IMG/VR virus record: IMGVR_UViG_3300045119_000559 | Coordinates: 1 to 60,870 of that record | Reading direction: 5' to 3' (one strand) | DNA: 60,870 nucleotides | Source: a virus | Lineage: Duplodnaviria; Caudoviricetes | In this document: positions 7,441 through 58,813 of the stretch, piece by piece | Layout: each line of letters opens with the position of its first letter | Position numbering within the stretch: position 1 is the stretch's first letter | Notes under the pieces: generated by a model | What the model was told of the DNA's origin: nothing | What the model saw: the letters and a program-made list of their open reading frames with translations, nothing else | The model's database searches: none | Translations under genes and position numbers: made by a program

Positions 7441-7552
7441 CGCATGCGCGATGAGCAGTCTGAACGCCTTATACGTGCTCTGGTAGAGATAGACAAAGGA
7501 CTTGGAGCAATTGCACTCGTGATGATGCTATGTACCTTCTTCCTTGTAGCCT

Positions 7553-7795: not shown

Positions 7796-8064
7796 GCGGC
7801 GCTGGTGCGCCGCAGGCGCTGGTCTACGCCTACACCGTACTGGCCTGCGAGCGCCGCAGGGCGCTGACGAGCGCGCAGAAGCTCGCCGACGGCACGGTGC
7901 GGCAGCTATTCACGGACTTGGGGTGGTTCGTCACGGTGCGGGCAGTTGCGCCGGCAACAGCCCCGGCGCTGTCCTTCGGCACCGGCACCGATGATCCGGG
8001 CTTCCGCGCCGGCATGATGATCGACCTTGTACTCAGACCCAGAAAGGACCAAGCAGATGGCTAA
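7792..8064 (+). CDS. hypothetical protein
   Basis: ATGA overlap with the previous ORF; ends overlapping the endolysin start. Confidence 0.5.
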   Translation: MSGAGAPQALVYAYTVLACERRRALTSAQKLADGTVRQLFTDLGWFVTVRAVAPATAPALSFGTGTDDPGFRAGMMIDLVLRPRKDQADG

Positions 8065-8725
8065 AGCAGCAGCAGCACCAGTGCAAGCACCACAGGCGGC
8101 ATACTCGCAGCCACTCGTCGTGGATATCTACCATGGCGACAACGTCATCGACTTCCACGCAGTGCGCGCCAGTGGCATCCTCGGAGTGATTCACAAGGCT
8201 TCCCAGGGCACCGGCATCACGGATGTGGCGTATGCCCAGCGACGCAAGGCGGCCCTAGCCGCCGGGCTGCGGTGGGGAGCGTATGGCTTCATGTCGCTGG
8301 AGGACGGAGTGGCCCAGGCGCGGCACCTGCTCAGCGTCGCCGACTGTGACGCTGATACGCTCATCGCCATCGACTGGGAGAACGTCGGGCGCGCAGCGCC
8401 GAGCGCGCACATCGCCCGCGCGATGCTCGAAGAGATCGCCGCGACTCTTGGCCGCCGGGCGAAAATCTACAGCGGCAACGTGGCGAAGGAGCAGCTCGGC
8501 GACTCGGCCGATGAGTTCTTCGCCGGGCATGATCTGTGGCTCTGCCAGTACGGGCCGAAGTGGCGGACACAGGCATCGTGGAAGCGCCCGTGGCTGTGGC
8601 AGAACAATGGCGACGCCTTTGGCCCCGGCCCGCACAGGATCGCGGGCATCTCCGGCCTATGCGACAACAACTGCGTCATCGCACCCGACACTGCAGAGTC
8701 GATGCTGGCGAGGTGGGCAGCATGA
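8057..8725 (+). CDS. GH25 muramidase endolysin
   Basis: VVDIYHG, VIHKASQG, WGAYGF, IAIDWE (DxE), LWLCQY, WLWQ, CDNN; RBS AAAGGA. Confidence 0.88.
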   Translation: MAKAAAAPVQAPQAAYSQPLVVDIYHGDNVIDFHAVRASGILGVIHKASQGTGITDVAYAQRRKAALAAGLRWGAYGFMSLEDGVAQARHLLSVADCDADTLIAIDWENVGRAAPSAHIARAMLEEIAATLGRRAKIYSGNVAKEQLGDSADEFFAGHDLWLCQYGPKWRTQASWKRPWLWQNNGDAFGPGPHRIAGISGLCDNNCVIAPDTAESMLARWAA

Positions 8726-27257: not shown

Positions 27258-28490
27258 TCAGATTGCGTCGGCGACGGCACAGGCCCATTCCGGCCTGACC
27301 CAGAGATATCCGTACAGCACATCGAGTCTCGTGATGAACTGATCCGACATGATATTGTATGCGCTGATCATGCGCATCGAGATGCCATCGAAGGCCTCTC
27401 TCGCCGCCTCATGCACGCCACGCGGCAGCTCCAGGTCCGCCGTCGCCATTGTCACGGCCTCTGGCACAAAGGCGAAGTTCTTGCGATACGACGATGCACT
27501 CAGCGTCGCCGGCACGACATTCGCGGCGTTCGCCGGCGAGGCATCGACCGTCTGGTACTGCACAGGCGTCGGGCCTGCCGCGGGCGGGATGAGCGCGGGA
27601 TAGATGTTCAGCGTGGTGCCGCCATTCGCCAGTGGCGAAGTGACTACGAACTGCATGAGGGTCTGCGTGGAGACCTTCGTGATGCGGTTGACGGAGTTGA
27701 CGCCCGCGAACGTCACAATATCGCCCTGCGCGAGCGGCCCACCAGCGGCGTTGATGGTGATCGCGAGGCCGGTCTGCGTCGCGCCATTCACGGTGAAGGC
27801 AGTGGCCTGCGCGCCTGTGTATGCCCCGGTAGTGTGCTTAATCGTGGTCTGATCCATATACCAGTCGAAGCCGAGCGTATCGCTGGCGATCTGCCCACTC
27901 CGGTACTGGTCGCCGATCTTGCTCTGCGGGTTGAGCAGCCCGGCGAGGCTCGCGACGCTGCGGGCCATGGTCAGCGGATCGAGGATGAGCTTGCGGCGCC
28001 CGCGCGGCGCGGAGTTCAGGTCGAGGATCGCGCCGGCCTGCAGCCAGGTCTGCGCCACTGGGGTCTGTACATTGCCGGCGCCATCGAAGTTGGCGGTGAG
28101 GCGGGCCACGCCGCCCTCGACACCGCCCATGATATTGGCGGCGACCGCGCCGGCAAGGTTGTTGACCATCGGTGCGAGCACCCGGCGCGAGAAGTCGTCC
28201 AGGGACATGGTGCGATCCACGGACGAGTATGATACGTCCACGCCCTGCTGGGTCGAAAGTGACAGCGTGGTGGACTGTTCCGAGGTGTCCTGCACCGAGG
28301 CGGCGGGGCCGGTACGGACTGTGAAATCGTTGGGCAGCCGAATCCGTACCGTGGTGCCGATCTTCGCGCCAGTCTTGGCGAACTGATCGTCGTACTGCTG
28401 GTCGATGTGCTGGATGAACTCGTTGGAGTTCTTCCACAGCCGTACAGCCTCGCGGGTAATCATGTTGATCGTAAGGAGGGTATTCGCCAT
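27258..28490 (-). CDS. major capsid protein, P22 coat (gp5) family
   Basis: MANTLLTINMITREA, GAKIGTTVRIRLP, SLDDFSRRVLAPM, GFDWYMDQ, GDIVTFAGV, RLDVLYGY..VRPEWAC. Confidence 0.92.
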   Translation of the reverse strand: MANTLLTINMITREAVRLWKNSNEFIQHIDQQYDDQFAKTGAKIGTTVRIRLPNDFTVRTGPAASVQDTSEQSTTLSLSTQQGVDVSYSSVDRTMSLDDFSRRVLAPMVNNLAGAVAANIMGGVEGGVARLTANFDGAGNVQTPVAQTWLQAGAILDLNSAPRGRRKLILDPLTMARSVASLAGLLNPQSKIGDQYRSGQIASDTLGFDWYMDQTTIKHTTGAYTGAQATAFTVNGATQTGLAITINAAGGPLAQGDIVTFAGVNSVNRITKVSTQTLMQFVVTSPLANGGTTLNIYPALIPPAAGPTPVQYQTVDASPANAANVVPATLSASSYRKNFAFVPEAVTMATADLELPRGVHEAAREAFDGISMRMISAYNIMSDQFITRLDVLYGYLWVRPEWACAVADAI

Positions 28491-30007: not shown

Positions 30008-31427
30008 CTGCGAACTCCGGGATGCCGGCGGCGGGGCGAAGCTCGCGGGGCTTCCCGTCCGTGCCGAGGGCGTACGCGCCTGTGGCCGCTGCGAGTGGCA
30101 CGCCCATGCGCAGCACGCCGGGGTGCTTGAACATCGCCGGGTCGAACTTCGCCCATGGCACCCTGGCGCCGTACACGTAGCCCGGCTTGTGCGGAGACTC
30201 GCGGAATAGGATGTACGAGTCATGGCCTGGGTCCTCGACGGTGTTCTCGTACACAATAGAGTCGTGGCCCTTCGACTCAAGGTAATTGCGGAGGTTCTTC
30301 ACCTGCTTCTCGCGATTGCCGAGGTAGTCGGAGAATGCGCGGACGGACTGAGGATTTGTCGCATCATGCGGCGCGCGGGGTTCGAGGAAGCTCTCTGGCA
30401 CTACGTCCTTCGCCAGCGCGCGCTTCAGTTCCTCCATCGGGAACTTGTCCGGGTCCATAAGATGTAACTTGTTTGCGACCTTGCCGGCTTCCCACGTGCC
30501 GGCGTCCGGCATGCGCAGCGGGTTCTGCGCCACGATGGCACTCGGGTACACCCGCGGTGCCTGCGTCAAGCCAAGTGGATTGCCTTCGCCTGCGTACTCC
30601 TTGTATGTGTTGGGAGTACCACTAGGCATGATTTCCTGCGCCGCGCGGGGCGAGCCGAAGTGGACGCCCAGTTCATCGTCCGGCAACTTGAACTCATCGA
30701 ATACGTTGTGCGAGCCGGAAGCGCTGCGATCCATCTGGTTCGTACCGTGATGCACTGCGACGTTGTAGCCCTGTGCCTGCGCCTCTGGCGGGATGGTCCA
30801 TTGGGCCTCGCGCGGCAGCGCGTGCGGGTCGAGGGGCGCGGGTGGAGGTGCCGGTGGTGCCTCTGCTCCCGATACATCGAAGATACTTGCACCAGGGTCC
30901 TTCGCCAACTTCGCTGCTATGGCAGCATCACTAATGTCAACCTTGTGCCAATTAGCACCCTCCCCAGACGGGAGCCCGAGTGCATCTTCGACGTGCTTCA
31001 TTGCCTCCTTGGATGACAATTTGCTGAACTCTGCCCACGTTGGCATCTTCATCGGCGCGTTCATGCCGAGGGCTCCCGTGCGGCCGAACGGCATGGCGCC
31101 TCCAGCGGCGTAGCCGCTCATCGTCACTGCGTCGCGCACGAGCGCGTTCATCTCGGGCAGGCTCTGCGGCTGCAGATTCGAGCCGTGGGTGTAGGCGCGT
31201 TCGAGGCCCTCCTGCGTCAGCCGCCCCGGAGTGAGCAGCGCCTGTGGCGCGGCGGCAAGGAGATCGTATAGCATATTGCCGCCGGCGAAAAGGCCACGGG
31301 CAACACTGCCGGGGGCTCCGGGCGGGCCGAGAGGCGCCCTGTGCGTCATGGTCGCCGCGAGGGCGTCATAGTCCACCGGCAGCAAGTCGCGCGGCGGGGT
31401 GTCAAGTTCGGTGTCGGGCGGGCACAC
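30000..31427 (-). CDS. protein with ADP-ribosyltransferase-like (ART-PolyVal-type) domain
   Basis: VHHGT...FDEF..LGVHFGS..AA; RVYP..IVAQNPL; GHDSIVYEN..ED..DSYILF. Confidence 0.6.
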   Translation of the reverse strand: MCPPDTELDTPPRDLLPVDYDALAATMTHRAPLGPPGAPGSVARGLFAGGNMLYDLLAAAPQALLTPGRLTQEGLERAYTHGSNLQPQSLPEMNALVRDAVTMSGYAAGGAMPFGRTGALGMNAPMKMPTWAEFSKLSSKEAMKHVEDALGLPSGEGANWHKVDISDAAIAAKLAKDPGASIFDVSGAEAPPAPPPAPLDPHALPREAQWTIPPEAQAQGYNVAVHHGTNQMDRSASGSHNVFDEFKLPDDELGVHFGSPRAAQEIMPSGTPNTYKEYAGEGNPLGLTQAPRVYPSAIVAQNPLRMPDAGTWEAGKVANKLHLMDPDKFPMEELKRALAKDVVPESFLEPRAPHDATNPQSVRAFSDYLGNREKQVKNLRNYLESKGHDSIVYENTVEDPGHDSYILFRESPHKPGYVYGARVPWAKFDPAMFKHPGVLRMGVPLAAATGAYALGTDGKPRELRPAAGIPEFADE

Positions 31428-31429
31428 GT

Positions 31430-33772
31430 CTACTTCACCACACTATACGCATTGCTGGCACCATAGTTCCGCACGTACCAGTGGCCGTCCTTGCCCTTCC
31501 GCGCGCCAGGGATGGGTGGAACGTCGGTGACCTTGCTCGGCAACTGGATTGGGCCACCTTGGCCGTTGGCTGCTGCAGGACCATTGCCGCCTACGTCCTG
31601 CATATTCGCCCGGAGTATCTCGCCCGTGGCATCGGTGCCGATGATCTCGCGCATCGTGCGGTCGATCATCTCGTCCAGCCCCGGCACTGCCGGCGGGCCG
31701 CCCTCGCCACCTTGCTGCTTCTTGTAGTCCAGCAGGGTCTTGAGGCGCTCTCGCACCTCGCGCATCGCGTCGATATCTCGCCGCTCGTCCTTGCCGCGCA
31801 GCTTCAGCTTGTCGCCGGCGGTGTCCATGAGGGTCTTGCGCAGCAGGTCCTGCAATTGGGCTACTTGGGCCTGGAGTTGTTGCTCGGTGATTGTTGGTCC
31901 TTCGCCGAGGGCTTGCGGCGGAACCATGCGGCGCAGCCTAGCGGCCGCCTCATCCGCCATATCGAAGTCCATCGAGCGCAATAGCAAGTCCCCGACGAGC
32001 GGGACCATTGTTGGGGCCTGCGTAAGTAGCAGCGTAAGGGCATTCGCGGTCTCCTCGCGCTTGGTGCCATAGGAGGGCCCGATATCGGCCTCGACTTCGT
32101 AGGTGCCAACGGCGGGATTCAGCACATGCGCCGCGACGGTGCCATCATGCTGCATTCGCTTCGCATACACCGCCTGCGCCTGGGGGTCGATCTCCAGCTG
32201 GAAGTCGATGCCATCCTCTGCGACGATGCGCATCACGCGAGCGGTGTCGAACAGCCTCGGGATGAGATCGAGGAGGATTTTGCCGACCTGGCGTATCGCA
32301 ATGGCCAGATTGTCGATGTAGTGATACGTTGCGTTATCGCCCTGGCGCTGGCGTTCGCCGATGGCCTTGGCAGAGCGCTCGTTGCTGCGCTCGCCCATGG
32401 AGTCTTGGTACTGGCCCGAGACCATGGCGAGCTCATTCGCACTGATCTGCATGCCACTGAGGGCCACGGGCGCCGCGACGGGCGGCTCGACGCGCTGCGG
32501 CGCCGGGATGGGGTTGCCAGCGTCATCAAGGCCATTGAATGGCAGTACAGAGTGATTCGTCCTGTTTGCGGTGTTCCAATAAGACTCGTACCCCTCGATG
32601 GCCTCTGCCGGCGCGATCCAAGGGCTCTTCGCCTGCAGCGCGCCGTACTCCACCGCCAGCGACGACCAGTAGTTGTACATCCGCTGCGGATCAATCATCG
32701 CACGAGTGTGGCCCTTGCAGTCATACACCCCGTCGATGACGACCTCTTCGCCGATGACCGGCACCAGCGGGATGTACTTCCCGACCCATTCTTTCGACTC
32801 TACAACCCTGTCGCCGACGATGAAGTGCCACTCAATGCGCTCAGTGGTAGTATCGCGGCGCTTAGTTTGCGGAGCGTCTTGGATCATCTTGAGCAGGTCT
32901 GGCGCCTCCTTCAGTATGCTCTCGCGCATAGTCAGCACGGTGCCAGACTTCGGATCGGTGTAGGCGTACAGCACATCTGCTTCGGACACCTTGCGGAAGT
33001 ACTCACAGACGCGGACGAAGTCGGTATGGACCCATGATCCGTCCGCGCTAACTGCGTTGTCTGGCGCGGCGAAGCCCTTGAACTCCGGGTACTGCGTGTC
33101 GAACTCGTCCTTGAGCACATCATCGAAGATGAACGCATAGCGCATGTCGGACTTGTCCGCCTCGCGGCACTCAGGATCGACGTACACCGTAAGCGGGTCG
33201 TCGATGCGCATGATCCGGGGCTCCTGGTCGAAGGAGTCCTCATTCACATACTGCGTCGTGACGCGGAGCCAGCCCTTCCCGGCCTCCACCTGGAACCGCG
33301 TCGCGGTGTCGTACGCCACGGTGGCGTTGCTGCGGTACTCGATATACCTCATGATGGCATTCAGCATGCTCGCTGACTCTGCCGTCGCACCGTTCCCCGT
33401 CGGCCTGATCTTGATCGCCGGTTTGTTCTGCAGCGCGTCGTTGATGATTTGCCTGTTGTGCTGCCGAACCTTGTTGATCGTCAGGCAGGGGCGCTCTTCC
33501 ACATCCCGGTTGCGGCGGATGTCATTCGGCCACTGGTAGCCATTATAGGCGTCTGCGTTGGCGAACTTGATATCATCGAGGTAATACTGCCGCGCGTTGT
33601 GCTCCCACTTCGCCGAGTGATTGAAGCGATCCTTGGCCTCGCGCAGGAGGGTGGCATCGGTGCTGTTGCCCGTGTGCGGGTTGTCGTCCGAGCGCTCCAT
33701 GGCGCTATTGCCGGGCGCAGAGCCCTGCGGCATGGGCGACGGGTTGGCGCGGGAGGCGAGGGTGTCGGCCAT
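31430..33772 (-). CDS. portal protein, P22-like
   Basis: DDIKFA..QWP...R....RPCLTINK, G.GWLRV, DP...EADKSD, W.GKYIPLVPV.GEE, DPQRMYNYW.S, YEV..DIGPSY.TKR.E. Confidence 0.92.
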   Translation of the reverse strand: MADTLASRANPSPMPQGSAPGNSAMERSDDNPHTGNSTDATLLREAKDRFNHSAKWEHNARQYYLDDIKFANADAYNGYQWPNDIRRNRDVEERPCLTINKVRQHNRQIINDALQNKPAIKIRPTGNGATAESASMLNAIMRYIEYRSNATVAYDTATRFQVEAGKGWLRVTTQYVNEDSFDQEPRIMRIDDPLTVYVDPECREADKSDMRYAFIFDDVLKDEFDTQYPEFKGFAAPDNAVSADGSWVHTDFVRVCEYFRKVSEADVLYAYTDPKSGTVLTMRESILKEAPDLLKMIQDAPQTKRRDTTTERIEWHFIVGDRVVESKEWVGKYIPLVPVIGEEVVIDGVYDCKGHTRAMIDPQRMYNYWSSLAVEYGALQAKSPWIAPAEAIEGYESYWNTANRTNHSVLPFNGLDDAGNPIPAPQRVEPPVAAPVALSGMQISANELAMVSGQYQDSMGERSNERSAKAIGERQRQGDNATYHYIDNLAIAIRQVGKILLDLIPRLFDTARVMRIVAEDGIDFQLEIDPQAQAVYAKRMQHDGTVAAHVLNPAVGTYEVEADIGPSYGTKREETANALTLLLTQAPTMVPLVGDLLLRSMDFDMADEAAARLRRMVPPQALGEGPTITEQQLQAQVAQLQDLLRKTLMDTAGDKLKLRGKDERRDIDAMREVRERLKTLLDYKKQQGGEGGPPAVPGLDEMIDRTMREIIGTDATGEILRANMQDVGGNGPAAANGQGGPIQLPSKVTDVPPIPGARKGKDGHWYVRNYGASNAYSVVK

Positions 33773-35691: not shown

Positions 35692-35787
35692 GGGCAAAAA
35701 CTCCACTCGGGTTGATAAGAGAGGCGCATTTGCGCGCCCAAGTCTACAGGTCGCTGCCGTGGGAGGCTTTCAGACAACCTGTCCTTC

Positions 35788-36057
35788 CTAGTGCGTGGCG
35801 AGCCACCTCGCTACATTCGCCAAGTCAGGCGCGTACGGATCATTGCGTTGCGCAATTGCCACTGCTGCGCGCAACTCCATTACAGTCGTCGGCCTTTGCA
35901 TCAGTTCATACGCCCATACCGACGTTACTCGACGCTCGAACGGGAACAACAGCGCCGCGTCCATATAGTGATGCTGTGCAATATTCACCTGTGCCACGAT
36001 AAGCATACTCGCGTACAACGCACCCAGCCCGACACAGAGCACCAGCAGCGCTTGCAG
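35788..36057 (-). CDS. TM + TPR-like segment overlapping the O-antigen-ligase-like gene in the +1 frame
   Basis: LQALLVLCVGLGALYASMLIVAQ TM helix, then AALLFPF..AQRNDPYAPD TPR-like; start uncertain. Confidence 0.5.
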   Translation of the reverse strand: MQALLVLCVGLGALYASMLIVAQVNIAQHHYMDAALLFPFERRVTSVWAYELMQRPTTVMELRAAVAIAQRNDPYAPDLANVARWLATH

Positions 36058-37090: not shown

Positions 37091-38356
37091 CTAGAGGCCC
37101 GTCCAGGCGTTGATGACGCCACTGCCGCCCATCGACAGGATGTAGATGCTGCTGCCAGCGGCGGGGAAGCCCGCGGTGCTGGTGCACTCGATCGGTACGT
37201 TCACCTGCGTGGCGAGGAACGTCTGCAGGGTGCTGGTGCGCAGGGCAGTACAGGCGGTATTGCCGGTGCATGCAGTCGTGGTACATGACCCGAAGCCCGC
37301 CGTGTACGTCATCGTCGGGGTCTTATACATCTGCACAGGGAAGGGCAGAATGCCCTCCGCGAGCGATGTGGTGGAGGTGAAGCCCCCGGCGATCACCGCA
37401 CCGGCACCGGCGCCCTCGGAGAGCTTGTAGAAGTACTTCAGCGCTGCCGCGGCGTCCTTCTCCTTCGGCTGGACCTCGAACAGCGACGCCACGCCGCTGC
37501 GCTCCAGCTGCGCCCCGGTCCAGGCGAAGCCATCCGTGGCTCCGCTGCCGGCAGCCGTCGGGGTGAAGCAAATCTCGACACCGACCTCGGTCGCCGTGGC
37601 GGGAATCGTGACAGTGGTGCTATACCTCGCGAAGGTCGTGGAGACCGAAAGCGAGGTGTTGACCACCGTGGTGATGCCGGTCCAGGCGGGGGTGATGGCC
37701 GGCGAAGCCGTGGGCGTTGCATTGAGGCCTTCATCGGTGCCGGTGCCGCTGATGACGATCATGTTCACTACATTGCCGTTGTCGGCCGAAAGGCCGGCCA
37801 AGGCGGCAATGTATGCGCTGAACGTCACGACCTGCCCAGCGAGCTGGGTGGCATCGGGCGTGGGCACAGCCGACATGACACACACGGGTTGCGTCAGTGC
37901 GCCCGAGGTGCGGAACACCTTCATCACATTGGTGAAGCCCGCAGGCGGCGACGGCGACGAAGTCACGATGGCCGTACGGCCAGCGCCTACAGCGACATTG
38001 GCGATGCAGCCCCACCGATCGGCCGAAAGGCCCGTGGTGGCAATCGCCGCGTTCTGGGCACATGTGACCGTGCCAGTGCCGTTGGTATTGGTGATGTTGA
38101 GCGCGCCGTTGCCGAGGAAGTTCCTCGGGGTGCCCCAGGTGGCACCGATGGCACTCGATGGGATCGTCACGGTCTGCGGGAACGCCCCACCGGGGAGGAG
38201 GGTGTCGGCTGGTACGTTCTCATTGCCCGTGATATACGGGTAGCCGGGAGACGAGCCTGGCGTGGGGTAGCCGGGGAACTGCCCCGCCGCGTACGCGGCC
38301 GTTGCCGCCACCATCGCGAGCGCGCCGAGGGCGCCAAAAACCTTACGCCTGTGCAT
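37091..38356 (-). CDS. exported beta-sandwich (CBM-like) virion-associated protein with RR-containing signal
   Basis: MHRRKVFGALGALAMVAATAAYA|AG; RNFLGNGAL.I, ADRW, LAGQVVTFS, TTFARYS.T..IP, GAQLE...ASLFE, KYFY; RBS GGAG. Confidence 0.7.
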   Translation of the reverse strand: MHRRKVFGALGALAMVAATAAYAAGQFPGYPTPGSSPGYPYITGNENVPADTLLPGGAFPQTVTIPSSAIGATWGTPRNFLGNGALNITNTNGTGTVTCAQNAAIATTGLSADRWGCIANVAVGAGRTAIVTSSPSPPAGFTNVMKVFRTSGALTQPVCVMSAVPTPDATQLAGQVVTFSAYIAALAGLSADNGNVVNMIVISGTGTDEGLNATPTASPAITPAWTGITTVVNTSLSVSTTFARYSTTVTIPATATEVGVEICFTPTAAGSGATDGFAWTGAQLERSGVASLFEVQPKEKDAAAALKYFYKLSEGAGAGAVIAGGFTSTTSLAEGILPFPVQMYKTPTMTYTAGFGSCTTTACTGNTACTALRTSTLQTFLATQVNVPIECTSTAGFPAAGSSIYILSMGGSGVINAWTGL

Positions 38357-42075: not shown

Positions 42076-42513
42076 AGCGGCGCAGCGACAGTGGTGAGGT
42101 TAAATGGAAGTACTTCGCGCACGGTGAAAGCCTTTGGCAACCTGATGCAACTGCGTACCGAGTTTGCTCTGCGTCTGCGCGAAGGCTTCGTCGTATTGGT
42201 GGTCGATGTGCTGCAGGGATGCGTTTGAGTCCTTCCACAAGCGCACCGACTCGCGCGTGATTTGCGAAACGCCGAGGAGGTTCCCAGCACCAGTGCTGCC
42301 ATACATCACCGCATCGGCGACCTGCTGCTGCAGCTTGTCGATCATCAGCCCCATGATGCGCGCGGCGCACTCGTCGAGCGTGAGCCAATCGCGCGCTGCG
42401 AGCGCCCTGACGGGCATGATATTCGTCGCCTTGACGATCGCCGGGGCGAAGATGAAGAGCGCGCCGAGGCCAGTGATGAAGCCGCGCCGATGCAGGGCAG
42501 GCGAGTCGATCAT
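42072..42513 (-). CDS. twin-arginine-leader protein built from coat-protein fragments (frameshift near 42147)
   Basis: HRRGFITGLGALF..APAIVKA leader; ITRESVRLWKDSN..QHIDHQYD..FA.T..K.GT matches the MCP N-terminus; the match continues as IRLPKAFTVR in another frame. Confidence 0.7.
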
Positions 42514-49448: not shown

Positions 49449-49856
49449 ATGGCAAAGTCACAGGTAATGGAAGTCGTCTTGCACGTCAACGCCGCAACGC
49501 TCCCGGCACTCCTGGAGGTCATCGTGCCGCAATGCAAGCTCGTGAGCGTCAGGGCACACGAGGCGCCCGATGATGCCAGCGCGCATGCCAATGCCCTGCA
49601 CCGACAGCCGCGCTTCCACGGCGGCAAGAGCAACAAGGGCATCAGCGCCTCGGCGCTCGTGCTCGAAGTCCTTGCCGACGGCAAGCTGCACACCTACACG
49701 GAGATCACCGAGGCCTTCGCAGCGCGCGACTTCGCACGTAATAGCGCCTCGCCAGCCATCAGCAACTGCGCCGCCGAAGGCACCGTGCGGGCGCTTGGCA
49801 ACGGCATCTACGCCCTCACCGACAGCACAGTCGTCAAAACGGAAGCCACAGCATGA
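49449..49856 (+). CDS. putative winged-helix DNA-binding protein
   Basis: LVLEVLADGK.HTY.EI..AF......NSASPAIS.....G.V..LG.G.Y.L. Confidence 0.6.
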   Translation: MAKSQVMEVVLHVNAATLPALLEVIVPQCKLVSVRAHEAPDDASAHANALHRQPRFHGGKSNKGISASALVLEVLADGKLHTYTEITEAFAARDFARNSASPAISNCAAEGTVRALGNGIYALTDSTVVKTEATA

Positions 49857-50266
49857 CCATCGCCACAGCGCCGCTCGTCGGCATGCACTTCCGTCCGCCT
49901 GCCAAGGCCATCCTCGCCGTCCTTCCCGGCCACACACCGCTGCGCTGCGTGCTGGAGCCCGACAACCCCTACGACGCGAACGCCATCGCGGTGTTCATCG
50001 CCAGGGAGGCCCTGGAGGCCCTGCCCCTCGCGGCACGCGCCGACTTCGAGCGCGAAGGCGAAGGCTACGGCTTCGCGGTATTCACCGCGCTCTTGGAGCG
50101 CGAAGCGTGGCAACTCGGCTATGTGAAGGCCACAGACGCATTGCATCTCGCCCCGCGCATTGGATGCGCCATCGCCGATGCTGGCGAGACCGACGAGCCT
50201 GCATGGCCCGCGCACCTCGCCTTCGATCCCGCCGGCAAGCCCCTCGTGCAGATGGACCTGCCCTAG
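49853..50266 (+). CDS. HIRAN-domain protein
   Basis: LVGMHFR...LEPDNPYDANAIAV...LGYV. Confidence 0.85.
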   Translation: MTIATAPLVGMHFRPPAKAILAVLPGHTPLRCVLEPDNPYDANAIAVFIAREALEALPLAARADFEREGEGYGFAVFTALLEREAWQLGYVKATDALHLAPRIGCAIADAGETDEPAWPAHLAFDPAGKPLVQMDLP

Positions 50267-50320
50267 CGGGCAGCACAAGTGCCGATGCCAATGCTCATAG
50301 CCATCAAGGAGCCACCGCGC

Positions 50321-50849: not shown

Positions 50850-52379
50850 ATGCAACACACTCCAACACCGGAACAGCAAGCCATCATCGACGCAGCGCGC
50901 AGCGCGCGCACCTCGCTCATGATCCGGGCATATGCTGGCTGCAGCAAGACCACGGTGCTTGAGATGTGCTCGCGCAGCGCCATCGCCGAGCCGCATCTCT
51001 ACATCGTGTTCAACACCAAGAACCGCAAGGAGGCCGAAGGGCGATTCCCCTCGCACTGCACGGTCAAGACCATCAATAGCATCGGCCATAGCGCCTGGGG
51101 CCGCGCCATCGGCAAGACCCTCGGCAAGCCCGACGACCGGAAGCAGGGCAAAGCGGTGACAGCGGTGTTTAAAGAGGCAGGCTTCCAGGCGACCACGGAG
51201 CAATGGTCCGCTTGCAAGGGCATCGTCACGCTGGCGATGCAGTGCGGGCTTGTCCCGCGGGAGTTCCACCCGCGCAGTCTGGTGCCCGACACTGACGACA
51301 CATGGCGCGACCTCGCCACCGAGGCTGTCGCCAATGGCGACAGCGCGGTGCTCGTGGAGTTCGCCAGGAAGGCCCTGGTGCTGAGCATCAAGCAATCTTT
51401 CGAGGGCAACATTTCCTTCGACGATCAGATTTATATGTCTGTTTGCTTCAACGGAGTATTCCCGCGCTTCAGCACCGTCATGGTGGACGAAGCACAAGAT
51501 CAATCCGTGCTGAATATCGAGATGATCCGCCGTTGCTGCGCGGATCGCCTTATCGTTGTGGGCGATCAAATGCAAGCTTGCTACGCATTCCGCGGTGCTG
51601 CGGGCGATGCACTTGACCTATTGCGCGCTCTGCGCCAGGAGTGGATCGACCTGCCCCTCGCCACTACCTTCCGCTGCCCGAAGCGCATCGTGTCGCGCAG
51701 CGCTACGCACGCCATCGGCTTCATCGCATGGCACGCCAATGCCGAGGGCGAGCACCTCGCATGGCCCACCAACGACCAGATCGAGGACCATTGTGGCTGG
51801 AACGCCAGCGACGTAGCGCGGTGCGCCGAAGGCGGTACAGTGGCAGTACTCTGCCGCAACAACGCCCCGCTGCTGGGCCTCGCTTTCAAGCTCCTCGCGG
51901 CGCGCGTGCCGGTGGTAATGCTCGGCCGGGACATCGGCAAGGGCCTCACAGCACTCGCGAAGAAGCTCCTACCAGACAACGCCCTTGGCGCCCCGGAGTG
52001 CGCGCGCAGGATCAACGAGTGGGCAGACAGGGAGGCCGCCTTGGCGGAGGCCAACGACAAACCCTCGCAGGCGGAAAGCGTGCGCGATAGGGCTGAATGC
52101 TTGCTTGCAGTGCTGAATGGTGGCGCCGCCTATGCCGGCGACCTCATCGCCATGCTCACCGACCTGTTCGCCCGCGACAGCGGTCGCGTTACGCTCAGCA
52201 GCATCCACCGGGCGAAGGGCCTTGAGTGGGATACGGTGTTGCATTTGGACCCTTGGAGGATACCCTCGAAGTGGGCGAGAGGGGTGCAACTGGTGCAGGA
52301 GCGAAACTTGAAGTATATCTGCGAGACCCGCACCAAGCATACACTCATCGAGGCCTCGCTAGAGGACTTCGCTGCTTAA
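50850..52379 (+). CDS. UvrD/Rep-family SF1 helicase
   Basis: PTPEQ, AYAGCSKTT, VDEAQD, VGDQMQACYAFRGA, TFRCP, LCRNNAPL, SSIHRAKGLEW, ERNLKYICETR. Confidence 0.9.
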   Translation: MQHTPTPEQQAIIDAARSARTSLMIRAYAGCSKTTVLEMCSRSAIAEPHLYIVFNTKNRKEAEGRFPSHCTVKTINSIGHSAWGRAIGKTLGKPDDRKQGKAVTAVFKEAGFQATTEQWSACKGIVTLAMQCGLVPREFHPRSLVPDTDDTWRDLATEAVANGDSAVLVEFARKALVLSIKQSFEGNISFDDQIYMSVCFNGVFPRFSTVMVDEAQDQSVLNIEMIRRCCADRLIVVGDQMQACYAFRGAAGDALDLLRALRQEWIDLPLATTFRCPKRIVSRSATHAIGFIAWHANAEGEHLAWPTNDQIEDHCGWNASDVARCAEGGTVAVLCRNNAPLLGLAFKLLAARVPVVMLGRDIGKGLTALAKKLLPDNALGAPECARRINEWADREAALAEANDKPSQAESVRDRAECLLAVLNGGAAYAGDLIAMLTDLFARDSGRVTLSSIHRAKGLEWDTVLHLDPWRIPSKWARGVQLVQERNLKYICETRTKHTLIEASLEDFAA

Positions 52380-53661: not shown

Positions 53662-54026
53662 TGCACCTGCATGCCCCCGAGCGCCCGCGCTACGCCAACG
53701 GTACGCCGTTGCTGGTGCTCGACAGCGGTAAGGCCGTCGGGCCTCACCTCGCGGTGCCCGCGGTGTACGTCACTCCGCTCGAAGGTCTCCCCGACGGGTA
53801 CGAGTTGCAGATGCTCGCACCAGCCGCGACGTACGCCGCCTTCACTTCCTTGCGCATGCCGTGGCATGAGGGCCTCGACAGGTTCTTCGCTTTGTGGCGC
53901 GAGGACCCCGAGGGCGTCCTGTGGCGGGTGTTCAAGTACAAGGTGCAGGCGCAAGGCGCGCGGCCTACGGCCGCAGCAGCACCATTGCGCAAAGTCACCA
54001 CCACACTCGCCGATCTCGGACTCTAA
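53661..54026 (+). CDS. hypothetical protein with C-terminal TLADLGL motif
   Basis: TGATG coupling. Confidence 0.65.
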   Translation: MHLHAPERPRYANGTPLLVLDSGKAVGPHLAVPAVYVTPLEGLPDGYELQMLAPAATYAAFTSLRMPWHEGLDRFFALWREDPEGVLWRVFKYKVQAQGARPTAAAAPLRKVTTTLADLGL

Positions 54027-54051
54027 CCACCAACGCAACGGAGCCACGCCG

Positions 54052-54294
54052 ATGCCGCTGAAAATCACCGCCACCCTGCATATCGAGCAGATCCTCGACC
54101 TCGCCGACTACGCCGACGCGATCCTCGATGCTCACAATGAGGACCTCGAAGATGAAGATCAGGTCGCCTCAATTGACGACCTCAGCACTGGCGATGTGAA
54201 GAGTGCACTGCAGAAGCTCCTTGACGATGACTTCGACATCTTCGATTGGGATATCGACTCGGACAAAGTCACCATCAAAGTCACGAACGCTTAG
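54052..54294 (+). CDS. small highly acidic protein (possible DNA mimic)
   Basis: 22 D/E against 5 K and 0 R in 80 aa; RBS GGAG. Confidence 0.65.
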   Translation: MPLKITATLHIEQILDLADYADAILDAHNEDLEDEDQVASIDDLSTGDVKSALQKLLDDDFDIFDWDIDSDKVTIKVTNA

Positions 54295-54365
54295 GCGGGT
54301 GTAGCGCCACGGCCCACGTTCGCCTTAACGATAGTGGGATGCGGCCATGCGGGCCGCATGGCCCA

Positions 54366-54394
54366 TTGACCCGCTGTCCCACATCGTGCACTAT
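54366..54394 (+). promoter_or_regulatory. sigma70-type promoter
   Basis: TTGACC-N17-CACTAT. Confidence 0.55.
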
Positions 54395-54420
54395 AACCCC
54401 GCACCCAGGAGACCTTCCCC

Positions 54421-54942
54421 GTGAACGCCACGCCGAACCCTGCCCCCCGTACCGCACACATCACCATCCTCGGCCTCACGTTCGAGGCCCCGCAGCCCTA
54501 CAGCACCGGGCACCAGTGCACCGAAGCCGAGGCCGGAGTGCTCAACTCGGCCCTAGCTGAGAACTTGCGCAATAACTTCTCCCGCAAGGTGCGCGCAGCG
54601 TGCGAGGAAACAAAGACCGAGAAAGCACTGGAATTGAGTGTTCCGCACGTTGCGGAGCTGCAGCATCAATTCGCCAAATATGCCGCCGAGTATACCTTCG
54701 CCTCCGCGCGCCCCTCCGCAGCGCGATTGTCCCCCGTCGATCGCGCCGCGCATCGCATCGCCGCGGACCTCGTCCGGGAGAAGCTCCGCGAGCGCGGCCT
54801 ATCGGCGGTGGACTTGGCCGAGGGCAAGTTCGACGAACTCGTTGCGCAAGTCGCAGCGCGCGAAGCGGTGCAGGCAGAGGCCGCGCGAAGGGTCGCTGCA
54901 ACGCAGGCCATCGTGGACACTGCGCTCGATATCGGGGCTTAG
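54421..54942 (+). CDS. conserved-looking phage protein
   Basis: ITI.GL.F..PQPY..GH..TEAEA.VLN....ENLRNNF; RBS AGGAG. Confidence 0.75.
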   Translation: MNATPNPAPRTAHITILGLTFEAPQPYSTGHQCTEAEAGVLNSALAENLRNNFSRKVRAACEETKTEKALELSVPHVAELQHQFAKYAAEYTFASARPSAARLSPVDRAAHRIAADLVREKLRERGLSAVDLAEGKFDELVAQVAAREAVQAEAARRVAATQAIVDTALDIGA

Positions 54943-54945
54943 CCA

Positions 54946-55182
54946 ATGCCTGTGTGGTACTTTTTCGCCGTCGTCTGCATGTCAAACGCGCCAGCCGATT
55001 GCGAGCGAGTTGTGCTTGACAAGCCGCGCGAAGCGGCAAGCATCCACAGCAAAGGTATAATCATGCCTCCAGTGTTCGCCAGCGCTGCCGACTGCGTCCA
55101 TTCGATGCCGTCTATTCAGAATTTCCTCCCATTCAAGGTTATGGGTTCAGAATGGACTTCGATCGGCTGCATGAGGCAATAA
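54946..55182 (+). CDS. small Cys-containing hypothetical protein
   Basis: Four Cys, hydrophobic N-terminus. Confidence 0.5.
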   Translation: MPVWYFFAVVCMSNAPADCERVVLDKPREAASIHSKGIIMPPVFASAADCVHSMPSIQNFLPFKVMGSEWTSIGCMRQ

Positions 55183-55187
55183 TACGC

Positions 55188-55316
55188 ATGTACCGAACCA
55201 TCGCCGAAGCCGCCATCTGGCTTGTCCTTGCCGCCATGGTGCTCGCCATCGCTGCCGGCACCGCGCCGGATTGGCGCAATGAATACATCGGAGCCGCGCA
55301 GCATGTCAGGCAGTGA
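55188..55316 (+). CDS. 42-aa single-TM peptide
   Basis: Translated by hand: MYRTIAEAAIWLVLAAMVLAIAAGTAPDWRNEYIGAAQHVRQ. Confidence 0.45.
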   Translation: MYRTIAEAAIWLVLAAMVLAIAAGTAPDWRNEYIGAAQHVRQ

Positions 55317-55545
55317 ACTCAGGGCGCTCTGTACGGAGCTGCTGTATCAGGCCCTCACGGCGCCGATTGGCATCGCAGTTGTGACGAACGACCCAGAGCG
55401 GGCAGTACAGAGGTTGTATGCTGCCCGCACCGCTGCAGGCGATCCGCAGCTCGCGCGGCTGTCCCTGCGCCGCAACCCGCTGCGCCCGGAGGCCGAAGTG
55501 TTCATCATCAAGACCACCGTGGAGCGAACGGAGGCAATGCCATGA
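55303..55545 (+). CDS. hypothetical protein
   Basis: LYQAL.APIGIAV.TNDP....QRLYAAR...DP.L..LS; RBS GGAG. Confidence 0.65.
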   Translation: MSGSELRALCTELLYQALTAPIGIAVVTNDPERAVQRLYAARTAAGDPQLARLSLRRNPLRPEAEVFIIKTTVERTEAMP

Positions 55546-55748
55546 ACACCCTGAAGATCAAAGTCATTGGCGCTCGTGGCAGCGGCAAAACCACCATCAT
55601 GCGTCACATTCGGCGCATGCTGCAGGAACTCGACATTGCATGCACCAGCGAAGTGTGCGAGAACATCGACACAGAGAACCTGCTAGTGCAACTCAGCAAA
55701 CACGACCTTGCATTCCTGCAGGGCAAGATTGAGAGTCCTGCTGCATGA
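55542..55748 (+). CDS. small protein with P-loop motif
   Basis: IKVIGARGSGKTT in only 68 aa. Confidence 0.6.
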   Translation: MNTLKIKVIGARGSGKTTIMRHIRRMLQELDIACTSEVCENIDTENLLVQLSKHDLAFLQGKIESPAA

Positions 55749-55999
55749 CCTCCCGCCGCGACGGCGAACCGCGCACTCGGCGCCATATCTGGATCGACGA
55801 CGACGACTGGCAGTGGATCACCTCCCGGTGGGGCTCGCGGGACAGCATCGGAGTGTCGAAGGCGATAAGGCTCATCATAAAGACCTTCCGCCGCAATGCC
55901 GAGGCCGCGGCAGGGGCCAGCGCGAAGCGCCCACAGGTGGACATCAGCGCCGAGGTCGATGCGGCCGTCGCGGCACGCGAGGCGCAGGAACTTCCATAA
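55745..55999 (+). CDS. ribbon-helix-helix-like regulator
   Basis: TRRHIWIDDDDWQWI...GVSKAIRLII. Confidence 0.6.
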   Translation: MTSRRDGEPRTRRHIWIDDDDWQWITSRWGSRDSIGVSKAIRLIIKTFRRNAEAAAGASAKRPQVDISAEVDAAVAAREAQELP

Positions 56000-56011
56000 C
56001 GGAGACGCAAC

Positions 56012-56233
56012 ATGAACGGGTGCAGTTACCAAGGTAACAACACGTATCAGTGCTCTGGCAACATCGGCAACGGCACTGGCGTTGTGGTCTTCGAGACCAC
56101 GAAGTGGGCCAGCGATTCCGTCTACCTCGGCGAGACAGCCATTCTCCTCGGCATCGCCATCTGCCTCGTCACCGCCGCCCGCATCGCCTGGGTCAATCAG
56201 GCGAAGCTCTTTGGCCCCAGGGGCCGCCGCTGA
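56012..56233 (+). CDS. small single-TM protein
   Basis: RBS GGAG; TM segment AILLGIAICLVTAA. Confidence 0.55.
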   Translation: MNGCSYQGNNTYQCSGNIGNGTGVVVFETTKWASDSVYLGETAILLGIAICLVTAARIAWVNQAKLFGPRGRR

Positions 56234-56445
56234 TGGGTGCATTCAGCCTCACGCATTGGCTCCTCGTCGCCGGGGCGGTGATGTTGCTGTTCGGCGGCGG
56301 CAGGATATTCACCCGGACAATGGGCGACCTCGGGCAGGGGCTACGCCAGTTCAAGTCCGGCATGACGGAGGCGCTGGGGCCTACGGCCCCACCCACAGCG
56401 AAGTTGCCTCCGAAGGAGGACGAAGATGACGACCTCGATGCATAG
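56233..56445 (+). CDS. tatA: twin-arginine translocase TatA/E subunit
   Basis: MGAFSLTHWLLVAGAVMLLFGGGRI....MGDLGQGLRQFKSGM: TM with His at the polar position, FG hinge, amphipathic helix ending FK, acidic tail. Confidence 0.88.
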   Translation: MGAFSLTHWLLVAGAVMLLFGGGRIFTRTMGDLGQGLRQFKSGMTEALGPTAPPTAKLPPKEDEDDDLDA

Positions 56446-56944
56446 CACCCTGCTGCGTCCGAGCCGCCGTGGCATCATCGGTGCCCTGGGCGCCCTGTTC
56501 GCCGCCCCTGCCATCGTACGAGCCGCGTCCTTGGACGCCCTGCGCGGCGTGCCGTACGGCCTCGGTGCCGATGGCACCCTCGCGCCCATCACGCAGGGCT
56601 ACGCGACGGAGTCGCTCGACTACGAGTATTGGGTCTCCATGGGCGGCACCATCGTGCGTCGCAGTGCTCGCGACATCCTCGCCGCGCCTGCGGGCACGTA
56701 CCAACCTTGGCTTGGCATCAATGATACGCATATTGGTTCCAGCATAGCCTTCCGCCCTACCGACGGACAAAAGAAGGGTCTGTCATTCGCGTATGACAAG
56801 ACTACGCGCAGCTTGCAGATCATTAACTTCGACGACCCCCTTGCGCGCGATCCGGTCATTCTGCGGCTTCGCCAAGAGCAGGACGACTTACGCCAGCGCC
56901 TACAGCGGGCACAACTCGCGACGGGAGATGTACTTTATGGCTGA
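56426..56944 (+). CDS. twin-arginine-leader protein
   Basis: SRRGIIGALGALFAAPAIVRA|AS; overlaps the tatA 3' end. Confidence 0.7.
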   Translation: MTTSMHSTLLRPSRRGIIGALGALFAAPAIVRAASLDALRGVPYGLGADGTLAPITQGYATESLDYEYWVSMGGTIVRRSARDILAAPAGTYQPWLGINDTHIGSSIAFRPTDGQKKGLSFAYDKTTRSLQIINFDDPLARDPVILRLRQEQDDLRQRLQRAQLATGDVLYG

Positions 56945-57221
56945 TGCATCCGCCACATCTGCACTCGACGGCCCCGCCGCCTTGGCGCAGGCCGATGCAC
57001 AATCCCTAGAGGAACTTTTCTCCCGCGATCCCTTCGAGATGGCTGCGGAGGACAGCGCGGCGCAAAGCGCCGGCACCGCGCCTCGCAACTTCCCGGCCAT
57101 CGTCGCGGCGTTGCGGCGCCAGCGCTCCGCGTGGAAGATCGCCGAGACCCAGGGTGCGAAGCAGGGCAAGGCTAAGGCCCCGAAGGCCTCCGTGTCGCTC
57201 GCGGACCTCGGGCTAGAGTAG
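56937..57221 (+). CDS. hypothetical protein with C-terminal SLADLGL motif
   Basis: SLEELFSRDP...IVAALRRQR..W...E; RBS GGAG. Confidence 0.7.
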   Translation: MADASATSALDGPAALAQADAQSLEELFSRDPFEMAAEDSAAQSAGTAPRNFPAIVAALRRQRSAWKIAETQGAKQGKAKAPKASVSLADLGLE

Positions 57222-57226
57222 CGCCG

Positions 57227-57361
57227 ATGCAAACGTGGCAATGGGTGCTTCTCGGCATCGCCCAATTGGGGCAGTTCGCCGTCGCCGCACATTGCGTCTA
57301 TGACGAGTACTGGCTTGCCCCGCGCCGCCGCATCGCGCGCATTGCCAAGGTGTTCGAATGA
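57227..57361 (+). CDS. 44-aa hydrophobic peptide
   Basis: Translated by hand: MQTWQWVLLGIAQLGQFAVAAHCVYDEYWLAPRRRIARIAKVFE; ATGA coupling. Confidence 0.45.
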   Translation: MQTWQWVLLGIAQLGQFAVAAHCVYDEYWLAPRRRIARIAKVFE

Positions 57362-58353
57362 CCGCTGCAGCCGCGATGCAAGCGCCCGAGTCACCGGGCA
57401 TCGTCAATTCGTCATTCTCGCGCGTGCTGCCGCGCCTGCAGCTAGCATGGGACAGCACCTCCATCGGGGCGCTTAAGACCTGCCCGGAGTTCTACCACCT
57501 GAGCATCGTGGAGGGCTACCAGCCGCGCTTGCAGTCGCCTCATCTGACGTTCGGTATCCTTGTGCATCAGGCGAAGGAGACATACGACCGCCAGCGCGCC
57601 AGCGGCGCCGACCACGATGCCGCTGTGCTCGCCGTCGTGCAGCACCTCATGTGCGCAACGTGGGACCGCGAGCGCAAGCGCCCGTGGGCCAGCGGCGACG
57701 AGAATAAGAACCGCTATACCCTGTTGCGCACCGTGGTGTGGTACTTCGAGGAGTACAAGGACGATCCCATCCGCACGGTGCAGTTTGCGAATGGCAAGCC
57801 CGCGGTGGAACTGTCATTCTCGTTCGAGAGTGGCATCACCGCCAACACCGGCGAGCCCTACCTGCTGTGCGGCCACATCGACCGAGTGGGCGCCCTGAAC
57901 GACAAACTCTACGGCTGCGACGTGAAGACCTCGAAGTACGAACTCAACGCACGGTGGGTCGCGCAGTTTAGCCCGCACAATCAGTTCACCCTCTACGCCT
58001 TCGCCCTGCGGGTGTTCTACCAGCTGCCCGTGCAAGGGTTCATCGTCGATGGCGCGCAGGTGCTCGTGACTCTGTCGCGCTTCGGACGGGAGTTCATCCC
58101 GAGGGCGGAATCGCAGCTGGAGGAATGGTTTAGGGGCTTCGCGGTGTTGGTTCGGCAGGCCGAAGGCTACGCCCGCGATGGCTTCTGGCCCCTCAACGAG
58201 ACTTCTTGCGACAAATTCATGACCGCAGACGGCCGAGGTGGCTGCCCATTCCGCACCGTGTGCGCCCGGCCCCCTGAGGCCCGCGCCGCATGGTTGAAGA
58301 GCGACTTCGTGCGTAGGGTGTGGGACCCGCTGCAGGTGCGAGGGGATGTATGA
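57358..58353 (+). CDS. Cas4/RecB-like PD-(D/E)xK exonuclease
   Basis: DSTS....KTCP, FGILVH, AVEL.F, GHIDR, DVKTS, QF..Y, SC.K...CPFR.VC (4 Cys). Confidence 0.85.
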   Translation: MTAAAAMQAPESPGIVNSSFSRVLPRLQLAWDSTSIGALKTCPEFYHLSIVEGYQPRLQSPHLTFGILVHQAKETYDRQRASGADHDAAVLAVVQHLMCATWDRERKRPWASGDENKNRYTLLRTVVWYFEEYKDDPIRTVQFANGKPAVELSFSFESGITANTGEPYLLCGHIDRVGALNDKLYGCDVKTSKYELNARWVAQFSPHNQFTLYAFALRVFYQLPVQGFIVDGAQVLVTLSRFGREFIPRAESQLEEWFRGFAVLVRQAEGYARDGFWPLNETSCDKFMTADGRGGCPFRTVCARPPEARAAWLKSDFVRRVWDPLQVRGDV

Positions 58354-58556
58354 CCACTATCAACGCCGTGCAAATCTACGTCCCGGAGGACTGTCGGCAC
58401 GGTCTGTGCGACTGCGCCAGCGCGAAGGAGTGCAAGTTTCCGCGCTGCGACAATTGCGACGAAATCCTCGACGCCAATGGCAAGTGGATCGACGACAATC
58501 AGTACCACGGTGAGGAACCGCTGCATTGCCCAGACTGTGGAGCACCGCTGAAATGA
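58350..58556 (+). CDS. small zinc-finger protein
   Basis: Multiple CxxC motifs. Confidence 0.6.
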   Translation: MTTINAVQIYVPEDCRHGLCDCASAKECKFPRCDNCDEILDANGKWIDDNQYHGEEPLHCPDCGAPLK

Positions 58557-58813
58557 GTGTCGATCTCTGGTGGCAGCACGACGAGCATAGCAAGTACGAA
58601 TATCTCCACGCTGGTTGCTGCCCAAACCACATCGGATGGATCGAACGCAGCAGCAGTGGCAAAACGATGCTCATGGTACTCGATCTCCCAGGTGTAGCGT
58701 TGCGGAAATCTTACCTGCCGCCTGCGGAGGCCCGCGTGGAGATGGAGCGCGCCGCGGGAGACTGGTTCGACTTTGCCTGCACCAACCGCCCTGCAACAGA
58801 GGACGCCACATAG
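58553..58813 (+). CDS. hypothetical protein
   Basis: ATGA coupling. Confidence 0.55.
   Translation: MSVDLWWQHDEHSKYEYLHAGCCPNHIGWIERSSSGKTMLMVLDLPGVALRKSYLPPAEARVEMERAAGDWFDFACTNRPATEDAT

Follow-up and report, generated by a model that had tools for sequence, protein, structure and literature searches.

A TatA-family gene overlaps a twin-arginine-leader gene in a soil podophage genome

What use could a phage make of a tatA gene of its own? TatA is the pore-forming part of the bacterial machine that exports folded proteins by twin-arginine translocation (Tat), and to our knowledge Tat components have been treated as cellular genes. The question is raised by the IMG/VR virus record IMGVR_UViG_3300045119_000559 (Duplodnaviria; Caudoviricetes), whose 60,870 bp were analysed in full and are called the window below. 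With 62.7% G+C and a CheckV completeness of 100%, it is a complete 60.9-kb soil podophage genome. A reading made from the sequence alone had proposed that a short open reading frame (ORF) at 56233 encodes a phage TatA of alphaproteobacterial type and overlaps the start of an ORF whose leader carries a twin arginine (RR) in the motif SRRGII. The two genes are as follows.

56233..56445, plus strand: phage tatA (P0003), a 70-aa TatA-family protein, MGAFSLTHWLLVAGAVMLLFGGGRIFTRTMGDLGQGLRQFKSGM, recognised by Pfam, alignment and AlphaFold
56426..56944, plus strand: P0001, a 172-aa RR-leader protein with no known domain; the leader covers about residues 1-33 (56426-56524)

Both parts of the proposal held up. 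P0003 scored 23.6 bits against Pfam PF02416 (TatA_B_E; gathering score 21), with 22.1 bits in a six-frame search, and the P0001 ORF overlaps the TatA stop by 20 nt when counted from the ATG at 56426, or by 8 nt (ATGCATAG) if translation begins at the next ATG, 56438; the first of these starts has a strong AAGGAGG 7 nt upstream. Other searches place P0003 in the same family. NCBIfam TatA/TatE models gave many matches (best E 7.8e-16), all five matches of a PDB sequence search were TatA chains (best E 1.7e-4), and 717 relatives were found at E<=1e-3 among 1.84 billion representative proteins. The best of these are TatA-like proteins of 52-110 aa that are 50-64% identical to P0003 and have the form MGSFSxxHW...LLFGxGRISxLMGDxGKGIKSFKKGM. 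A few long repetitive false positives also stand among the top relatives (two were checked, P0017 and P0018), and the 10 best TatA relatives are metagenomic singletons, so that cluster members gave no clue to a host.

The residues that define this kind of TatA are retained. In an alignment with 15 short TatA-like relatives, which represent the nearest TatA subtype, P0003 keeps all 11 invariant columns (M1, S5, H8, W9, F20, G21, M30, D32, G36, F40 and G43). We take the E. coli equivalents Q8, F20-G21 and F39 to serve TatC docking, the hinge and transport, respectively. The overall plan is that of TatA/TatE proteins: a polar H8 is followed by a transmembrane helix of 12 hydrophobic residues (W9-F20), an F-G hinge with G21-G23, an amphipathic helix at about residues 25-47 that includes F40, and an acidic tail. 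AlphaFold predicts a helix at residues 3-21, a break at the GGG hinge, a second helix at 25-47 and a disordered acidic tail, with a mean predicted local distance difference test (pLDDT) score of 68 and values of 84-90 in the transmembrane helix; the hydrophobic moment over residues 21-45 is 0.5-0.69. A hydrophobic stretch of 12 residues is the length stated for TatA in the parts of a published study available to us (PMC9527704). Foldseek found no match to the model in the PDB because the model is too small.

The gene has a phage-like composition, with a G+C content at third codon positions (GC3) of 0.80 against 0.73-0.83 for other phage genes, and is therefore not a recent capture. Its ATG has one base in common with the TGA of an upstream 73-aa ORF (TGATG). 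A longer, 131-aa ORF that would contain tatA was rejected, as homologues begin at the same methionine and its upstream part runs across a frame whose GC3 is 0.82. A tblastn search of 50,697 GenBank phage records with the TatA found no match, a homologue search of our protein collection returned only the protein itself, and a single-protein scan of viral contigs returned none. The absence of TatB and TatC noted earlier was also borne out: the complete record contains a single PF02416 match, hence no second protein of that family (TatB), and no match to TatC (PF00902).

The coupled protein, P0001, begins MTTSMHSTLLRPSRRGIIGALGALFAAPAIVRAAS, in which SRRGII is followed by 16 uncharged, G/A-rich residues and VRA. 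It matched no Pfam, NCBIfam or PHROG family. Four homologues were found by a word-indexed search and two more (P0010 and P0015) by a leader-targeted search, and in an alignment of eight family members, including an ORF of the related phage G001, 12 of the 30 invariant columns lie in residues 1-36, which makes the leader the best-conserved part of the family. ESM Atlas gave only scores below 0.8 for P0001, and the Tat-signal-bearing families among its rows are leads, not evidence.

The arrangement of the two genes is itself conserved. tatA lies directly upstream of a P0001-family gene in all four loci with visible upstream DNA, and the genes overlap in three of them; the count covers the window, G001, L048 and L032, with P0006, P0007, P0009, P0010 and P0015 outside it. 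The pair sits in a slot whose surroundings in the window are these.

55745..55999, plus strand: conserved small ORF (HIWxDDDDWQW), anchoring on its left side the syntenic slot of the tatA/RR pair
56012..56233, plus strand: 73-aa ORF with one C-terminal transmembrane segment and a GC3 of 0.82, its TGA overlapping the TatA ATG (TGATG)
56937..57221, plus strand: conserved small ORF (SLEELFSRDPFEM), the right anchor of the slot, with an 8-nt overlap with the P0001 stop
57358..58353, plus strand: PD-(D/E)XK nuclease, which served to find related loci by synteny

G001, a complete viral record of 62 kb, encodes a 63-aa TatA (PF02416, 35.8 bits) that is 44% identical to P0003 and whose stop overlaps by 8 nt the start of an RR protein 41% identical to P0001, and the flanks are those of the window, with the HIWxDDDDWQW ORF on the left and the SLExLFSRDPFEM ORF and PD-(D/E)XK nuclease on the right. 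The 73-aa ORF has no counterpart in G001, and it gave no Pfam or NCBIfam match. L048, a 1.1-kb metagenome contig, has the same left flank, a 62-aa TatA and an 8-nt overlap, the RR protein being cut by the contig end. L032 (2.7 kb) begins inside the TatA amphipathic helix (local TatA profile, E 4e-5); its RR protein, 53% identical, starts 88 nt further on and is followed by the same right flank. The coat proteins of the window (G000) and G001 are 84% identical, against 44% and 41% for the pair, so the cassette has remained whole through a divergence much faster than that of the virion.

Elsewhere the slot is empty. L073 and L074, found through homology of the PD-(D/E)XK nuclease (60% and 43% identical, respectively), have the flanks and neither tatA nor the RR gene; judged from these loci, the cassette is dispensable. 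PF02416 was detected in none of 45 related viral records, 11 of them at least 90% complete; these comprise 43 among the best 80 coat-protein relatives and two nuclease relatives, the other 36 and L101 being left out. Leader ORFs of the kind described below occur in 3 of 6 TatA-bearing viral records and in 2 of the 45 TatA-free relatives (Fisher p 0.009, or 0.045 if G000 and G001 are taken as one lineage, in a small and ascertained sample). When the TatA alignment was run, with a pattern limit, against 2.9 million viral contigs, four further viral TatAs came to light.

G076 (L071), 51239-51379: TatA in a 54.8-kb, 98% complete record, beside a RecT-like annealing protein (phrog_2449, E 1e-87) and an exonuclease
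G074 (L069), 6570-6695: TatA of 45 aa, between tail-fibre-like and tail-sheath genes
G075 (L070), 28887-29009: TatA in a 91-kb record with terminal repeats, amid signal-peptide ORFs without PHROG matches
G077 (L072): TatA with host-like metabolic neighbours; doubtful, may be contamination

H8-W9 and the hinge are kept in all four, and in none of them is tatA directly followed by an RR ORF, although two leader ORFs are present at other places in the G076 genome. As a separate observation, a 64-aa ORF 1.9 kb upstream of tatA in G074 (L069 1898-2092) begins MRRRDFLTGSAALAAFA and matches Pfam TAT_signal at 17.3 bits, against a threshold of 22.7.

Two other RR leaders had been pointed out in the window and grouped with that of P0001. 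Both are present, on the minus strand.

42100..42513, minus strand: P0004, a 137-aa RR-leader protein (HRRGFITGLGALFIFAPAIVKA); leader at 42427-42513
37091..38356, minus strand: 421-aa protein with a signal-peptide-like N-terminus (HRRKVFGALGALAMVAATAAYA; MHRRKVFGALGALAMVAATAAYA); residues 39-421 are tail-fibre/carbohydrate-binding module (CBM)-like

The grouping stands for the first and not for the second. The P0004 leader reads HRRGFI, 17 uncharged residues and VKA, and has 16 of 29 residues in common with that of P0001, in keeping with the near-identity first described. Only six codons are identical, at 59% nucleotide identity, and the likeness is therefore one at the protein level; a DNA repeat was considered and rejected, given six identical codons among 16 identical residues. 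The leader at 38356 gave no match to the leader profile and looks like a different, ordinary signal peptide that should not be grouped with the other two. Residues 39-421 of that protein resemble viral tail-fibre/CBM-like clusters (Atlas 0.94, TM 0.72), which is a lead only. Its cleavable-looking N-terminal extension is unusual for a virion protein and is missing from its Atlas relatives (320-337 aa).

The ORFs at 56426 and 42513 show the features of a Tat signal, namely RR with hydrophobic residues at +2/+3, an uncharged h-region of at least 13 residues, a basic c-region and AxA, by rules that we applied by eye and with a custom script, in place of TatP or TATFIND. A six-frame pattern scan of the window gave 13 matches to RR plus hydrophobic residues, and only the three leaders at 56426, 42513 and 38356 stand at the N-terminus of ORFs with coding-type GC3. 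Beyond the window the leader behaves as a module. Searches seeded with the P0001 family recovered 28 viral, 18 metagenomic and 1 genomic loci, most of which align only over residues ~5-45, with the consensus RRGF[IL]xGLxxLxAAPAIV[RK]AxxLMPV[KR] fronting many unrelated bodies of 75-230 aa. A local profile run over all DNA gathered for the analysis found 68 leader frames, 53 of them distinct, and complete genomes have one to four (four in G001, two each in G000 and G021, one each in G017, G024 and G028). A leader-only search of the protein collection gave nine proteins, and an abundant leader ORF had no tblastn match among GenBank phages. In a proteobacterial metagenome-assembled genome, a solute-binding protein (SBP_bac_8, E 8e-41) has the N-terminus RRRTLIGSTAALLAAPAIVRA, with the same LLAAPAIVRA end, and this is evidence that the leader end belongs to a real export signal.

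We consider the window's tatA best explained as an orphan, diverged but intact TatA paralogue in an accessory gene of the early region. Its most plausible role, to which we give a little less than even credence, would be that of an accessory TatA working with the TatBC of the host, by which the coupled RR protein would be exported or inserted into the membrane; this view draws on family membership, on the functional residues that are kept, on the conservation of the cassette and on the Tat-like leader. tatA and the downstream gene would be produced together by overlapping or coupled translation. The phage TatA would insert in the inner membrane, be recruited by the host TatBC receptor once this has bound the twin-arginine leader, and add to or replace host TatA protomers. 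In this way the 172-aa protein, and perhaps the second RR-leader protein of the phage, would be reliably exported or else anchored in the membrane through Tat. The sequence-only reading had set boosting, hijacking, jamming and membrane weakening side by side; sequence cannot choose among these roles, and the added evidence favours cooperation with host Tat over jamming, because the pair has been conserved though diverged, the TatA invariant residues are kept and the leader end recurs on a periplasmic protein.

Several findings weigh against an accessory TatA that cooperates with the host, and together the many TatA-free leader phages and the oddities of the leader weaken the case. TatA is missing from all 27 other leader-bearing viral records recovered by the P0001-seeded searches (the 28th is G001), five of them at least 99% complete, so the leader does not need a phage TatA. 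The viral tatA genes of G074, G075 and G076 do not adjoin an RR ORF. Neither Pfam TAT_signal (PF10518) nor NCBIfam TIGR01409 matched P0001 or P0004 at E<=1 or at 0.01, and the only matches to a Tat-signal model were below threshold, at 17.6 bits for a G076 leader ORF and 17.3 bits for the L069 ORF, against 22.7. In some members of the leader family V, T or I occupies position -1 of the putative AxA site, and LMPV[KR], past the putative cleavage site, is strongly conserved, more than a plain signal peptide needs; these features are compatible with an uncleaved anchor or with another recognition role. The body of P0001 gives no recognisable fold in AlphaFold (family alignment of eight sequences, mean pLDDT 51.6), the model being of insufficient quality for a fold search. 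P0003 itself is a diverged TatA-family member and not an equivalog, since it stays under every NCBIfam equivalog cut-off, scoring 57.9 bits against 83 (NF001940, its best) and 38.6 against 53.9 (TIGR01411). It has a one-residue insertion past the hinge (RIFTRTMGD in place of RI-SxLMGD), and its amphipathic helix has fewer lysines than those of its relatives, with Q/S replacing K. Finally, with no TatB or TatC in the record, its action would depend wholly on host TatBC.

A second explanation dispenses with TatC. The phage TatA would oligomerise alone and thin or permeabilise the inner membrane. It would behave like a pinholin or other small holin, serve the coupled protein as a non-lytic holin, or drain the proton-motive force as an exclusion factor, with the RR protein as its cargo or as a periplasmic regulator. 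The short, 12-residue transmembrane helix and the amphipathic helix are both kept, and TatA and the small holin TpeE have been argued, in the parts of one study available to us, to have a common architecture and a common membrane-destabilising mechanism (PMC9527704). Lysis genes of the window leave room for such a role.

8027..8725, plus strand: GH25 muramidase (endolysin), ~12.6 kb from tatA across the record ends

This enzyme has no signal or signal-arrest-release (SAR)-like N-terminus, and no convincing holin was found beside it, the nearby DNA offering only a 40-aa, one-transmembrane ORF at 7444-7566. A formal analogue for the pair exists in the T4 holin T and its periplasmic antiholin RI, as described in the parts of PMC8385771 available to us. 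In the same limited coverage of PMC9527704, small holins of the BhlA/TpeE type, which combine a transmembrane with an amphipathic helix, are proposed to move the product of a neighbouring gene across the membrane, and TpeE is stated to be unrelated to TatA in sequence. The phage protein, unlike these, is a true PF02416 member and does not adjoin the endolysin: tatA lies in the early/replication block, ~12.6 kb away. Moreover H8-W9, F40 and K41, which have no obvious role in membrane thinning, are conserved in all six viral TatAs with a visible N-terminus, and the canonical RR motif of the partner makes sense only with TatC. We regard TatC-independent weakening of the membrane as unlikely.

Interference with the host is less probable again. 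A dominant-negative TatA protomer, or an RR protein acting as a plug, would block host Tat and could in this way keep host envelope enzymes from being exported, for example, or shut out other phages. TatBC can be stalled by unfolded Tat substrates, and the predicted cargo is poorly structured; the hinge insertion and the substitution of Q/S for K set P0003 apart from cellular TatAs, as do its scores under the equivalog cut-offs. However, the TatAs of G001 and L048 have no insertion and keep FKKGM or FKSGM, so these oddities of P0003 are not traits of the family, and blocking Tat would be self-defeating in genomes with two to four RR-leader proteins. We therefore hold interference to be very improbable. 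That tatA is a functionless passenger, a drifting fragment of a host gene overlapping its neighbour by chance, fits its rarity (TatA in 0 of 45 related viral records, an empty slot in L073 and L074) but is scarcely credible for a gene that is intact in four loci at 44% identity between two complete phages, keeps all subtype-invariant residues and a phage-like GC3, and has conserved order and overlap with the same partner family.

The bodies behind the leader hold a further finding, pieces of the major capsid protein, which in the window is encoded as follows.

27258..28490, minus strand: major capsid protein of the P22 coat type (PF11651, E 3e-36), the source of the segments copied in 42100-42513

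At residues 76-123 (42145-42288), P0004 shows 56% identity to the coat protein of this same phage (coat residues 2-49, E 2e-17), its residues 39-75 (~42289-42399) align to coat positions 90-126 by the coat profile, and tblastn of P0004 against GenBank phages found only the coat gene of Pseudomonas phage PAE2. In-frame major capsid protein pieces occur in 10 of the 53 distinct leader ORFs, from three capsid families, and the copied segments are the N-terminal ~50 residues, positions ~90-127 or the C-terminal ~40 residues, which we take to be the N-arm, the spine-helix region and the C-terminal strands. In G001 (49500-50302, minus strand) one leader ORF has coat residues 3-63 and another has 360-398 plus 95-127. 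In G017 (30044-31298) a leader ORF has coat 5-82 plus 150-174, with two more coat pieces in neighbouring frames; that of G072 has coat 95-127; those of L040 and L043 have coat N-terminal pieces; and that of L160 also has a capsid segment. The leader ORF of G024 (35762-36028) matches the N-terminus of its own phrog_9953 major head protein (E 1.6e-11), and that of G021 (31377-31709) matches its own phrog_371 major head protein (E 3.4e-5). Run over 7,247 other open frames of this DNA that are 60-250 aa long, the coat profile matched only ORFs adjoining leader ORFs in G017 and G072. A complex prediction for the coat (27-row alignment) with residues 31-137 of P0004 scored 0.00, which gives no verdict.

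These copies can be read in two ways, as functional capsid mimics or as duplicated coat pieces that a mobile leader ORF has picked up and that are decaying. If they are mimics, they would bind coat or scaffolding protein, and might drag coat to the membrane or outside by hitchhiking, exclude related superinfecting phages, or couple the assembly state to the envelope. Tat hitchhiking is the co-export of a signal-less partner, according to the parts of PMC10924467 available to us, and the likeness is that the phage RR-leader proteins carry coat segments that could bind signal-less coat protein. On the broadest version, the RR leader would mark an undescribed phage system in which Tat exports or tethers small capsid-fragment proteins and other cargoes, some phages having their own TatA; the tatA/RR-protein cassette would then be its dedicated-translocase version. 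We rate so broad a system as improbable. We know of no link between Tat and capsid proteins.

Two cellular arrangements come closest to the pair. E. coli tatE is located apart from tatABC, and, as with TatE and orphan TatA paralogues of Proteobacteria, the phage has a short TatA-family protein with the transmembrane helix-hinge-amphipathic helix plan, encoded without TatB or TatC, so that TatBC is presumed to be supplied from elsewhere. Unlike these, the phage TatA is virus-encoded, overlaps the gene of a specific RR-leader protein and is at most 50-64% identical to any of the 1.84 billion representatives. In the phoD-tatAd-tatCd genes of Bacillus subtilis, a Tat substrate gene adjoins dedicated translocase genes. 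The adjacency and co-expression of substrate gene and tatA suggest a dedicated pairing in both; however, the phage has no TatC, its tatA precedes the substrate gene in overlapping frames, and its cargo has no known enzyme domain. A full-text literature search found no paper on phage-encoded TatA or phage Tat substrates, and a 2026 review of Tat evolution mentions phages, in the parts available to us, only in contexts unrelated to phage Tat genes (PMC13673990).

The remainder of the genome is that of a podophage. PHROG profiles identify a portal (E 1e-111), a large terminase and a head-closure protein, along with a primase, a ParB-methyltransferase fusion and a DNA polymerase spread over two ORFs. 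At the DNA level, the terminase and portal region is like that of Pseudomonas podophages alone (PAE2 and LKA5 among them), and the likeness is distant, at ~66% identity across 11-17% of the query. The region is present in one soil-metagenome DNA run, maybe the source sample, and in no RNA run, and a promoter and terminator scan of 54000-58600 stayed at chance level.

A few other loci deserve mention. The two polymerase ORFs, 2849-3967 and 4300-5910 (both plus strand), match consecutive parts of phrog_17 (profile 478-785 and 808-1232), and a 139-aa ORF (3977-4396) lies between the halves; an intervening mobile element or a genuine split could explain this. Directly past the endolysin are two proteins with signal-peptide-like N-termini, one of 421 aa (MRSRARAIIAAVAAWVLAAAPCAAQ; 9218-10483, minus strand) and the other an 81-aa coiled-coil protein (MNRIAIALVLALVLTPALAQQ; 8967-9212, minus strand) that is possibly a spanin-like or envelope protein. 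At 55542-55748 (plus strand) a 68-aa ORF consists of little beyond a Walker-A P-loop, with weak AAA/NTPase matches below cut-offs (best E 4e-5), and has no counterpart at the syntenic place in G001. The record opens, at 16-1368 (plus strand), with a single 450-aa ORF in which a ParB-like nuclease domain and a DNA methyltransferase domain are joined.

A phage TatA encoded with its own substrate would be a compact, testable two-gene system. It asks whether TatA supply can be limiting for export, whether a foreign TatA can be recruited by host TatBC, and how close TatA stands to a holin. The widespread, unusually conserved RR leader and its capsid-fragment fusions suggest, beyond this one cassette, that soil phages use the host export machinery in a way not recognised before.

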